Source of the DNA: Octopus vulgaris
Lineage: Eukaryota
NCBI GenBank assembly: GCA_951406725.2
Contig: OX597816.1
Location: 29,636,001 to 29,700,000, forward strand
Direction: 5' to 3'
DNA: 64,000 bases
Below, one piece after another: positions 15,941 through 53,032 of this stretch (positions are counted from its first letter, which is position 1; every line of letters starts with the position of its first letter). Both the position numbers and the translations under genes were made by a program. Under the pieces are notes generated by a model. The model was given only the letters and a program-made list of their open reading frames with translations, ran no database searches and was not told where the DNA came from.

Positions 15941-16401
15941 TCTGTTGTGTCTGGGGAGAGTCATTTTCTTTTTGTGCCTTATAACGTAACACACTCACCG
16001 GTAAAATTTCCACTTATTTCTTATTTTTATTTTCCTAACATTTTTATTTTCCTTGAAGAGTCAAGACTATTGAAAATGTTGCAAGATGCAACGAAAATTT
16101 TAGGAAAATATAACTTTTAGGAAAATAAAATAAAAATAAGAAATAAGTGGAAATTTTATCGGTGAGTGTTGATTCACCTGTTGATACACCTCTTGCAACC
16201 TTTTCAATAGTCTTGACTTTTGAAGAGTCAAGACTATTGAAAATGTTGCAAGACGGAACGAAAATTTTAGGAAAATAAAAATAAGAAATAAGTGGAAATT
16301 TTACCGGTGAGTGTGTTACATTGTACGGCAAAAAAAGAAAACGACTCTCCCCAGACAAAACAGAATATGCTTCAACACACGAACTCAAATCCAAAAACGA
16401 A
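15941..16401. mobile_element. Multi-copy inverted/direct pLTR-like element with 13-bp TSD and HHR-like motifs
   Basis: TSD gtaacagtaaaat at 15928-15940 and 16402-16414. Outer inverted arms; motif copies at 16067-16103 and 16234-16270. Related copy at 45322-45462. Confidence 0.75.
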
Positions 16402-16819
16402 GTAACAGTAAAATATTTCTATTTATTAAAATCTAATAAAATACAACAAAAGTAATTCGGAAAGCTGCTAAACATTTTTAAAAGCGTCACTAATATGAAA
16501 AGTTTATAAAAACTCGCAAACATATCAGTAGACTACCTGCGGTACAAGAGAATGGTAAAAGTCTGCATAATTTATTGTTAATTTCTGTTATTGTGATTTC
16601 TAATTGTTAATTTTTCATTGTTCGTTAGAGATTTCTCTCAGGATCTAAAGACTTTGGCCTGTTTATATTTTATGGTCTGCATATTTTGTAATTAATTATA
16701 AATTATTTAACATTGAATTAAATGTGTTGGTGTACATAATTTTTAATGTTCTATGTTGCGTTGTCTTGTATAATTAATAACGAAAATTGGTTGACGAGCC
16801 ACGTGATTGTGGTGTTTGC

Positions 16820-17172
16820 AGTAGTAGTAGTAGTAGTAGTAGTAGCAGCAGCAGTAGAAGTAGTAGTATTAGTAGTAGTAGAAGTAGTAGTAGTAGTAGT
16901 AGTAGTAGGAGGAGGAGGAGGAGGAGGAGAAGGAAGAAGAAGAAAAAGAAGAGGAGGGGGAGGAGGGGGAGGAAGAAGAAGAAAAAGAAGAGGAGGGGGG
17001 AGGAAGAAGAAGAAAAAGAAGAGGAGGGGAGGAGGAGGAGGAAGAAGAAGAAGAAGAAGAAGAAGAAGAAGAAGAAGAAGAAGAAGAAGAAGAAGAAGCA
17101 GAGGAGCAGCAACAGTAGTAGGTAGTAGTATTGGTAGTGGTTGTGGCTATGGTAATAACAATAGTAGTAGTA
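16820..17172. repeat. (GTA)n/(GGA)n/(GAA)n compound microsatellite
   Basis: Seen directly. Confidence 0.95.
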
Positions 17173-18849
17173 GTCTGAAATTTAAACTGCAACATCATTT
17201 CTAATTGCTCACCAATAATGTTGTTCTTCTTATTGTTGTTGTTTAACCCAAAATAATTCTGATGCAGTTGTTTATGATCAAATATGTGCTAGCAATTAAC
17301 ATCTCATCGAATGGGTAGTATTTTAAGATGAAGTTGTGGGTAATTTCGCTGTTATTTCTAGTGGTTGAGTAACGCCCATATAAAGACTCATTGATTGCTT
17401 CTTCTATAGTTAGATTGGAGACATCCAACTGGATGTGCCATTAGACTGTTGCACTGATTTTTATGTACCACTGATGACAGGTGTGCTTTTCTTCCTTTCA
17501 GGATCGATAAAAATAACCATAAATCCAAGGTGAGAGATTGGTGAAACAGTTAGAGAGTGTAGCAAGATGCTTAAGGTTTGTTCCAGACCGGCAGAGACCC
17601 CCTCCCTCAGCTTTGCTAAGCTATAAAACTTCAATTACTTATATGTGCCAGTTATCATGTGTACGTGCTGACTGTGTCTTCAATTCAAGAAATTAAATTT
17701 ACTATTTCTAATAAAAAAAACTAGAAAACAGATGCCACACTTTAAAGAGTTTATTTAGACAATACAGTAAATTAATAATTAAAATAAATAAATAAATGTC
17801 TTGCTTTATGGTCTTGGGGCAAAATATATCCCTATACACTGACAATCTATTATTTCTCGTAAAAATAGTTTATTTTAAATTAATTAGAAGAGCACAAATT
17901 TTATTTAAGTATAATAGACACAGCACAGCGATACGTTTTTGATTTGTCTCTCACTTTCTTGGCTTTTAATTAAATAAAGACTCTCAATCATAAATAACTA
18001 TTTTAGTGCTTTAATAATAGACAGGCCAAAACAATTATAGCCTGCTTCAAACACAATGCAATTTTCTCGATTTAATTATTACTGGGTATGCTTCATTGTT
18101 CGGTGTCTTCATATACATTATCTTGTTTTCACACATCATCTGGTTATATGTTTATGAGATTCCTGAAACAGAAGAACCAATTTTAGAAAGCCCAAGCATA
18201 TCACTTAATTTACTATTTATGATGCTGTATACCTTAACACACTGGTTTGCTGAAGCATCGCTAAAAATACATTGTCTTACATCTTTTTCCTTTAATTAGT
18301 ACGAAGTGAAGGTGCTGAGTTCTTAATATGGGAAGTTCTCCGAAGTTTTTTTTTTTTTTTAAATTGGCGCTTCTAGGTAAAACATTAATAACGAACTAGC
18401 AAGTTAGTTTCTATGTGAACTCGTAACAGTAAAAACACAATTACCATTAACTTTCACTCGACTCTCATTAACAAAATGCCACTGTAGGTAATGTATTTCG
18501 AGAAATACTGTCTTAATAAAAATTACTTAGCATGATTATGGTGAGAATACCTTGGGTTATTATAGGTCTCCTCAATCAGCGCTGGCTTATGCTTAAACAG
18601 TAACATCATGAACAACAAGAGAAAAATGCGGCAAAGGCGAAGTATAATGCCGGCTTCTAGACATGATAGACATAGAAACCTAATAGTAACGTCTCATACA
18701 CACGGTAACGTGCCGTAAACAAGGCATAACGAATAGCTGTCCTAAATATATCCTGCGCGAAAAGATAGATGGTCATGGTTGGAAAGACTGATCAGAAGTC
18801 TGCTAGCTCAAGGCTGACACATGTTTCAGCAGATACAACAAAATAAATA

Positions 18850-19300
18850 AGAAAAGAGATTCGGCTGATAGTGTCCTTGCGGAAGATACGCTGAGTTTAT
18901 GGATTTGTGGTGGGGTTTACAGAGCTATTGTTTCTGTTGATGGTGGTTGCACTAATGGTCTTATCTGATTGAACATTGGGCAGTGAGGTCACTCAGAATT
19001 TGTATTAATTATACAGTTTTCCTAATGCTTATATAAATGAACTATACCTGCTCATTGTAACTCCATTTTTCAAAACTGTTCATGGCTTAGCGAGACAGCG
19101 AACGTCAGTATCTATGGCATTTTAGGGGCTAGAGAAAGGAAATACGTTCTCCTCAGACCGGTGATATGGACGGAACGCTGGTACGAAAGTAGAATTTTCA
19201 GAGACACCAATATGTCAGGTGGTGGTGTTAAAGTTTAACGCTTCAGCTTTTTCTCCAGCTTCTTGGTCACTTGTGAATTTATATGTCAATAACTTCCTTA
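18850..19300 (-). pseudogene. Very decayed Penelope-like RT N-terminal fragment
   Basis: Minus-strand L*TPPQIHKLSV resembles the Penelope LYGLPKIHK motif; many stops. Confidence 0.3.
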
Positions 19301-51430: not shown

Positions 51431-51631
51431 CGTTATCGGGTTGATCTGAATTTGGAGAGTATGCTAATGTGCTGTGGTGTTAATCATTTGTTTCATGAAT
51501 TAATCATTATAATTTTTTTTGCTGTTATTGAAAGTATGCTGCCACCGGATACCTCTAATGATTCCGTAATCATTGCACATGAATAAACGGAAGTCCATAT
51601 AGAAATATATTTTTTTAAATGATAATCACGT

Positions 51632-51767
51632 GTGTGACTGTGCTTGCTTCCCAAATACCTTGTTCTCGGTTCAGTCCCGCTGCGTGGTACCTTTGACAGG
51701 CATCTTATACTCAACCGCGGGCTGACTAAAGCCTAGTGAGTGAATTAGGCAGTTGAAAACTGAAAGC
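51632..51767 (+). mobile_element. SINE family A, 5' half, diverged
   Basis: ggttcagtcccgctgcgtgg...gtgagtgaatt. Confidence 0.65.
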
Positions 51768-51952
51768 ATGTGGTTAGACAGCAAAAACTTCTTACTCCAC
51801 AGCCACTCTTACACGCATACACAAACATATGCATCATATATACATATATACTTGTATACATACATACATACATATTTGCATACATAAATTCATATATATT
51901 TATATATATATATATATATATATATATATATATATATATATATATATATATA

Positions 51953-53032
51953 TAAGAAATTTAAAAAGGAAAATGCACACACTTTACATAGTTTTAATAT
52001 AATTTTTAATATATCGACCGCTTTCGCTTTCGTTATTCATGATATTATGGTTTACTTATTTGAATATGTATTTTCTTAAGGAAGAATTTTTGTCCATGTT
52101 GTGTTTGATGATATTTACGAGTGAATGACTTCACATCCAAAACTGAACGACATCCTGAAATCACACAAACTCATCAAATGCAAAAAAGCAACACAAATCT
52201 CTAAAGAGACTAGTAACAAATGCGAAGCTTTACAAAACGAACACGAAACCAAAGGTTCAAAAATTTGGACGCCCAAACTGTGGGACCTGCCCCCAACTTA
52301 CTTGAAGGCTCGGATTTCCTTTTCAAACACGGACATAGTTTCACAATTAAAAATAGCGCCTCTGAGAACCTAATTTATATAATAACCTGCTTGGGTTGCG
52401 GACACAACTATATTGGACTGACGAGTATGACCTTGAGAAACAGAACCACTCTACATAAAGAGCAAATCCGTTTCCTGCAGTACAGGCAAATTCCTCTCAG
52501 TGGACATATAGAAAAATGTGCAGATAACATCAAACCAAATTTCACAGTCTTCCCCTTCTACCAGTGCAAAGATACAATCTCTCCAAAAGAACGTTTAAAT
52601 AAAGAAACTTTTTGTCATTGAAAAATACAGAACACGTCTTAATATGCACGCATAACCAACTTTTATCTTTTTACATATTTAAATTCAAGATCACATCACT
52701 GTACATAAATCCCCTCATTAAACAAGTTTTTCGGAACTCTTTTTTCTTTGTCTGTATATATATGCCCTTACCGAAAGCTGAACAGCTATCTCCCTTGCCC
52801 ACAACAATAACAATAATAACGATAATCAATTACCACACCATATTTTTCTACTTGTGAAGTCATTCACTCGTAAATATCATCACACACGACATGGACAAAA
52901 TTTCTTCTTAAGAAAATATATATTCAAATAAGTAAACCATAATATCATGAATAGCGAAAGCGAAACCGGTCGATATATTAAAGATTATATTAAAACTATG
53001 TAAATGTGCATTTTCCTTTGTTTAATTTCTTA
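51953..53032 (+). mobile_element. 5'-truncated Penelope-like element: inverted pLTR, GIY-YIG, pLTR; inserted in (TA)n
   Basis: 51953-52135 is the reverse complement of 52853-53032. The body reads NLIYIITCLGCGHNYIGLTSMTLRNRTTLHKEQIR...ERLNKETF. Confidence 0.92.
52942..52976 (+). ncRNA. Minimal type I hammerhead-like motif, A3-U8 variant
   Basis: ATATC-ATGAATA-GC-gaaa-GC-GAAA-C-cg-GTC-GATAT. Confidence 0.55.

Follow-up and report, generated by a model that had tools for sequence, protein, structure and literature searches.

Covariation of the 3-8 core pair among putative minimal hammerhead ribozymes in Penelope-like element ends of Octopus vulgaris

The window analysed here is a stretch of 64,000 nucleotides from the genome of Octopus vulgaris (GenBank assembly GCA_951406725.2, contig OX597816.1, positions 29,636,001 to 29,700,000 of the forward strand), and the subject is a set of small hammerhead ribozyme motifs within it and the base pair between positions 3 and 8 of their core. 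The genome is 2.8 Gb in size and rich in microsatellites, and the G+C content of the window is 36%. Many short repeat insertions are present, several with an inverted part-copy, a trait described for Penelope-like elements (PLEs) (PMC8557442). Motifs were sought with a descriptor of the type I hammerhead, consisting of NUGANNA, stem II, GAAA, a palindromic stem III, UH and stem I, in which N3, N7 and N8 were left free. The following sites are named, with positions counted within the window.

12092..12135, minus strand: mirror of the 12188 hammerhead in the same insertion, matching the descriptor
12184..12227, plus strand: minimal type I hammerhead with C3-G8 (12188), stem III an 8-nt palindrome, one arm of a putative inverted PLE end
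16067..16103, plus strand: minimal hammerhead with U3-A8 (16070 family)
16234..16270, plus strand: second direct copy of the 16070 motif in the same insertion, U3-A8 (16237)
20385..20419, plus strand: minimal hammerhead with C3-G8 (20389), stem II partly decayed
26558..26600, plus strand: decayed C3-G8 hammerhead (26562), stems II and III damaged, relatives intact
36764..36801, plus strand: minimal hammerhead with U3-A8 from an older family (36767), with a decayed mirror (U3 at 36645, minus strand)
45416..45452, minus strand: U3-A8 hammerhead (45449), a separate insertion of the 16070 family, stem I of just 2 bp
52003..52045, minus strand: inverted part-copy of the A3-U8 end, core intact, one change each in stems II and III
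52217..52621, plus strand: putative broken 3' end of a PLE open reading frame (ORF), a GIY-YIG endonuclease fragment (Pfam PF01541)
52942..52976, plus strand: minimal hammerhead with A3-U8 (52947), with a 5-bp stem I, a 2-bp stem II and a 6-nt palindromic stem III
58833..58860, plus strand: CUGAUGA followed by a hairpin but no GAAA, within an inverted repeat of 398 nt, failing the hammerhead descriptor

Nine descriptor matches were found in the window, eight of them complementary at positions 3 and 8. The C-G matches are 12188, its mirror at 12131 (minus strand) and 20389; the U-A matches are 16070, 16237, 45449 (minus strand) and 36767; 52947 is the only A-U match. The lone non-complementary match, at 58099, has weak stems. 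In 40 shuffles with a stem I of at least 3 bp, 0.025 complementary and 0.1 other matches were obtained per window.

All core heptamers of the preliminary description lie at their positions; for the one given as about 45445, U3 is base 45449 and the strand is minus. The A3-U8 core of the mirror arm is likewise present, with A3 at 52040 on the minus strand. Every core had also been placed between the correct stems and before GAAA and NUH. Seven of the nine sites so described are indeed complete minimal type I hammerheads, but 26562 and 58833 are not, so that only 12188 and 20389 stand among the four sites claimed as canonical C3-G8; nor does the mirror core at 52040 lie between correct stems, since its stems II and III are broken. 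The 26562 motif has lost the palindrome of stem III and most of stem II; its intact relatives are C3-G8, and it lies 3' of a GIY-YIG-like C-terminal fragment at about 26230-26380. The 58833 site was rejected as a hammerhead, because a hairpin follows CUGAUGA but GAAA is absent. Between 16070 and 16237 there is an inverted part-copy whose U3 is at 16207; it pairs with the 16237 copy in the predicted fold. The mirror of 36767 carries U4C. The predicted cut in the 52947 motif falls after C52971. Mirror arms, and the 16070/16237 pair, cannot be counted as independent because each belongs to one insertion.

The anatomy of these motifs points to an origin in PLEs. A palindromic stem III, a short stem I and a G10.1-C11.1 pair closing stem II are present in the 52947, 16070 and 36767 families and in a G3-C8 family described below, and an extra base after A9 is present in the 16070, 12188 and G3-C8 families and absent in the 52947 and 36767 families. 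The minimal hammerheads (min-HHRs) of metazoan PLEs described by Cervera and de la Peña (2014, PMC4209133) likewise have type I topology, a short stem I, a palindromic stem III and G10.1-C11.1, often carry an extra base after A9, and occur in PLE terminal repeats and as thousands of dispersed copies. The anatomy of the window motifs matches this description, and they are assigned as putative minimal type I hammerheads in PLE terminal repeats.

The surroundings of the motifs are consistent with this assignment. The 52947 motif lies 328 nt 3' of the broken GIY-YIG fragment, and at one locus or more in each of the 52947, 16070, 36767 and 26562 families a hammerhead lies 300-1000 nt 3' of a GIY-YIG-like fragment. 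The fragment at 52217..52621 itself matches PF01541 with an E value of 0.002 and 18.8 bits, under the cut-off of 22.6; in its relatives the domain is clear and is preceded by a CX4CxxC linker, and a CX2-5CxxC linker upstream of GIY-YIG is the mark of Neptune elements (PMC8557442). Copies of the 52947 family are 5'-truncated and have (TA)n targets; the window copy is flanked by (TA)n at either end and has an inverted part-copy upstream. The families followed yielded no full-length element, and no long PLE ORF lies between two pairs of 52947-family copies 4.5 and 5.2 kb apart, where no protein search directed at reverse transcriptase (RT) was made. An Rfam scan gave no match at or above the gathering threshold for any window motif, and no hammerhead family was seen among the 150 weak matches listed of 232. 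The predicted homodimer of 52947 is a dimeric hammerhead in which stems I and III would form between molecules around stem II; for several other motifs the best predicted homodimer has a different or partial fold.

The 3-8 pair was then followed across the genome with family patterns, which had exact flanks and N3, N7 and N8 free; compositions refer to the first 100 matches listed per family, and reversed-pattern controls gave 0 matches. With 304 exact-flank matches, the 52947 family is A3-U8 in 96 of 100 listed copies, the other four being single mutants. The 16070 family is larger (2168 matches) and is U3-A8 in 93 of 100, with five C3-A8, one U-U, one U-C and zero C3-G8 copies making up the remainder. 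For the 36767 family an exact pattern found the window copy alone because the family is old, its copies being about 85% identical to one another; a DNA search was used instead, and U3-A8 was present in 36 of 38 aligned rows from the 30 best-scoring loci, window copy included. The variant pairs noted in the window are thus the consensus of their families and are neither canonical nor random. In the window region 52700-53025, no difference at 52947 or 52952 is listed in contigs of three organisms or in RNA reads of a fourth, while position 7 of the motif differs in 8 of 10 RNA reads; these records are few, and one is perhaps the source sample.

U3-A8 motifs lie behind the endonucleases that most resemble the one of the 52947 family (45-52% identity). 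In a sister family, with an endonuclease 45-47% identical, stem II, its loop and stem III are the same as in the 52947 family and U3-A8 is found in 5 of 5 loci. This comparison of sequences indicates that a U-A/A-U exchange occurred within one lineage. A second A3-U8 family, older and outside the window, has 32 matches, with 19 A-U, 6 A-G, 3 A-A, 2 A-C and 2 C-U cores. It was reached through a survey of cores with a purine at position 3, restricted to a GC-rich 4-nt stem III and a bulged base, which gave 154 matches against 295 in the control; a further large family of that shape is therefore not expected, the survey being blind to cores without the bulge and to an AT-rich stem III. A candidate third A3-U8 family, with a 6-nt palindromic stem III and degenerate stems, was seen at three loci, two A3-U8 and one G3-U8.

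The fourth pair, G3-C8, was first met in the flank of another locus, and no copy of its family lies in the window. The family has 1183 exact-flank matches, with G3-C8 in 95 of 100 listed; a subfamily has 247 matches with 98 of 100, a count raised in part by tandem arrays of a 2.1-kb non-coding unit. Across 39 aligned rows, stem I reaches up to 7 bp, one base is bulged, the 5 bp of stem II begin with G-C, stem III is palindromic and position 17 is U. From its sequence, the family appears to share the traits of PLE ends, namely a variable 5' end, inverted half copies, an optional tail and a splice-acceptor-like start. Most copies start at a site resembling a branch point, polypyrimidine tract and AG about 25 nt before the core (seen at twelve loci), and a few retain a microsatellite-rich upstream part of 450-680 nt, resembling a retained PLE intron. 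The non-coding unit is 2.0-2.2 kb long and contains one G3-C8 hammerhead and an inverted part-copy, in head-to-tail arrays whose units are 94-99% identical (five loci). Its sites are C2:206158693-206186231 (at least 13 matches on C2), C3:26607841-26614380, C3:123284793-123286970 and C2:7146286-7148283. This unit may be retrozyme-like; alternatively, we presume, it may be the passenger of a rolling-circle element.

All four Watson-Crick pairs, C-G, U-A, A-U and G-C, thus occur at positions 3 and 8, each family-wide. A broad scan with N3, N6 and N8 free covered 1.19 Mb of about 2,800 Mb (297 loci, many picked by family, and the window) and gave 173 distinct matches in 18 clusters, against 1.3 per shuffle. 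The 3-8 pair is complementary in 16 of the 18 clusters, against 6.4 by permutation (p 5e-6, kinship ignored, and the mixed old A3-U8 family counted as A-U). The two non-complementary clusters are single copies resembling decayed members of complementary families. As the families are related, the permutation p is inflated, and what can fairly be counted is three or more independent double changes. A random sample of 38 stretches (380 kb) yielded 9 matches against about 3.7 per shuffle, too sparse as a census; 4 were convincing C3-G8 motifs, 1 was U3-G8 with good stems and 4 were at background level.

The preliminary description held that three families kept the pair complementary under selection for catalysis. 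The covariation is real, and with the G3-C8 form and the U3-A8 sister it is stronger than was claimed; selection for catalysis is a further step. Since fixation in a transposon family reflects the source element alone, selection would have acted on source elements only, and the pattern across families supports the view that these were selected for the 3-8 contact within the hammerhead fold. Cleavage, and selection for it, are what we infer beyond this.

Our explanation, which we consider probable, is that the source elements of several PLE families needed an active hammerhead fold, and that the 3-8 pair was exchanged between families yet stayed complementary. The fold would trim PLE RNA from longer transcripts, weakly, either as a dimer or with the protein of the element, and the dimer would form through the palindrome of stem III. 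Mismatched 3-8 intermediates would have survived briefly, because activity was low and loosely required, before a second change restored the pair. In the active core C3 and G8 form a Watson-Crick pair that does not belong to the ground-state fold (PMC3884650). In the hammerhead of a Poseidon PLE from Anolis, C3G or G8C abolishes cleavage and the double mutant partly restores it, in a reaction that needs protein (Frangieh et al. 2024, PMC11167929).

Several observations weigh against this explanation. Among 300 listed copies, N3 was changed 10 times, N8 7 times and the free N7 5 times, with no compensatory double change; 17 changes in 600 at positions 3 and 8 do not differ from 5 in 300 at position 7 (p = 0.36), so single copies are unprotected. 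The independent swaps are few, at least 3. A tree of 34 rows made with the core masked, 4 of the rows coming from the purine-3 search, places 7 of the 8 A3·G8-type loci in one clade among A3-U8 copies (UFBoot 79, permutation p 0.0002); a non-complementary source element therefore spread a little. Of 10 long copies of the G3-C8 family, 3 carry G3·G8, whereas each unbiased list has 1 such core in 100. Other core positions are also loose. Among 6 rows of the 20389 family 3 have U4C, apparently an amplified subfamily (four loci), and the commonest family of a general survey lacks A at position 6 in 13 of 17 rows. No tie of the G3-C8 family to a PLE ORF was found, there being no endonuclease match in the 1.5 kb upstream of 11 long copies. 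The direction of the U-A/A-U exchange, in which U-A would be ancestral, is read from a weak endonuclease tree built on short, broken fragments. In the lizard PLE, dead ribozymes left in vitro insertion unchanged, and RNA-seq gave no reads ending at the cut site (PMC11167929). In pairwise mutagenesis of a type III hammerhead the G-C swap alone gave rescue, other core double mutants remaining low (PMC9901934).

That commonest family, with 21,696 matches against 6,703 in the control, is C3-G8 with mostly U or C at A6, and one of its copies follows a GIY-YIG fragment. A comparison within copies gave a different indication: in the 29 best-scoring copies of three families, core mismatches were 8 in 870 (0.9%) against 211 in 8723 (2.4%) in the flanks (p 0.003). 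This points against free drift of copies, yet the set is biased: its copies were chosen by score, their flanks have many A/T runs, and sites of CpG or subfamily variation had been set aside. It is not relied on, and the pattern test is preferred. The genomic copies, those of the window included, are fossils decaying regardless of the 3-8 pair.

In an unlikely alternative, the fold, including the 3-8 contact, was kept as a structure, either a binding site for the PLE protein or a folding element near the RT start and the splice site, and cleavage was negligible or incidental. Insertion of ribozyme-dead mutants proceeds normally in vitro and cleavage depends on protein (PMC11167929), metazoan min-HHRs cleave poorly even as dimers (PMC4209133), and A6U, U4C and A3·G8 cores were amplified, all of which a structural role would accommodate. 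The absence of a pile-up of read ends at the 52947 cut site points the same way, among just 20 RNA reads, too shallow to judge. The positions that matter for the chemistry, however, G5, A9, G12-A15.1, U16.1 and H17, are conserved throughout the clusters, although the descriptor itself requires them, and the 3-8 pair belongs to the active fold and not to the ground state (PMC3884650).

It is more improbable that complementarity is historical luck, a few source elements having been amplified after drifting freely at positions 3 and 8. Family fixation requires no selection, the lack of protection in single copies and the inflated permutation p suit such a history, the A3·G8 and G3·G8 groups exist, and Naiad PLEs multiply without canonical hammerheads (PMC8557442). 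Against this, every large family is complementary. Drift should mostly yield families with a single change, of which one small one was seen, and a double change ends complementary with a chance of 1 in 3, as at least three did. Finally, it is highly improbable, and largely refuted, that the motifs with A3-U8 and G3-C8 resemble hammerheads by chance or through a misread register: there is no Rfam match and stem II of 52947 has just 2 bp, but the shuffle background is minimal, the motifs are at the right position in PLE ends, in the majority G3-C8 form stem I has 7 bp, stem II has 5 bp and stem III is a palindrome, together with a bulged base, and the sister family with the published U3-A8 core has the same stems.

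The U3-A8 pair is already published, both in nature (PMC3088659) and in PLEs (PMC4209133). The natural core variants of Perreault et al. (2011, PMC3088659) included the first natural U3-A8 and an A6C variant of low activity, and the text of that paper names U3-A8 alone for the 3-8 pair. In the PLE min-HHRs of PMC4209133 the U3-A8 covariation is recorded, with about 1,300 matches in Schistosoma mansoni, and the 56 representatives given there are C3-G8, except for two U3-A8 and one U3-G8, with no A3-U8 or G3-C8. Its descriptors cover C-G and U-A cores only, whereas the Octopus genome holds all four pairs and an A3·G8 subfamily. In the Poseidon PLE study G3-C8 was engineered (PMC11167929); in Octopus most copies of a natural family with more than 1,100 matches carry it. 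Full-text literature searches, covering open papers and few notations, returned no natural A3-U8 or G3-C8, the latter just as an engineered variant. The available text of PMC6155905, PMC6765202, PMC8495972, PMC11014351, PMC11300833 and bioRxiv 2026.07.22.740005 gives engineered mutants only for the 3-8 pair. The six A3-U8 and G3-C8 heptamers are absent from 11 text supplements, a weak negative because alignments may be images or in DNA letters.

In the hammerhead, the general acid is provided by the 2'-OH of G8, a base long treated as invariant. About 150,000 small PLE-associated hammerhead variants, with a reduced stem III and cleavage as dimers, are said to have been reported by Lünse, Weinberg and Breaker. 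It is possible, though doubtful, that each of the C-G, U-A, A-U and G-C forms serves a successful retroelement family as a functional ribozyme, that A·G and G·G are tolerated intermediates, and that A3-U8 and G3-C8 families of this size are missed by published catalogues because their descriptors fix CUGANGA or UUGANAA. Natural families with all four pairs are evolutionary evidence that pairing is needed and base identity is not, and they display the stem contexts tolerating each swap. PLEs may or may not profit from the hammerhead, cleavage being weak and in vitro insertion unaffected, and compensatory swaps between sister families are among the few signs of selection; they also provide matched constructs for a direct test. 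Searches fixing C3-G8 miss at least 1,700 exact-flank A3-U8 and G3-C8 matches in the Octopus genome.

Several other features were observed in the window. A PLE linker fragment lies at 39157-39651 (plus strand), followed by non-LTR retrotransposon fragments at 40982-42361 (minus strand; RVT_1, E 1e-8). At 22599-25104 a unit is present three times at a period of about 1.1 kb, with 97-99% identity across 300 nt. The 398-nt inverted repeat around the rejected 58833 site spans 58234-59035 and is 99% perfect, and within it, at 58718, a weak hammerhead-like arrangement with A6C passes the loose scan. Near the end of the window, 61507-62261 is a (TCA)n array of about 250 units.

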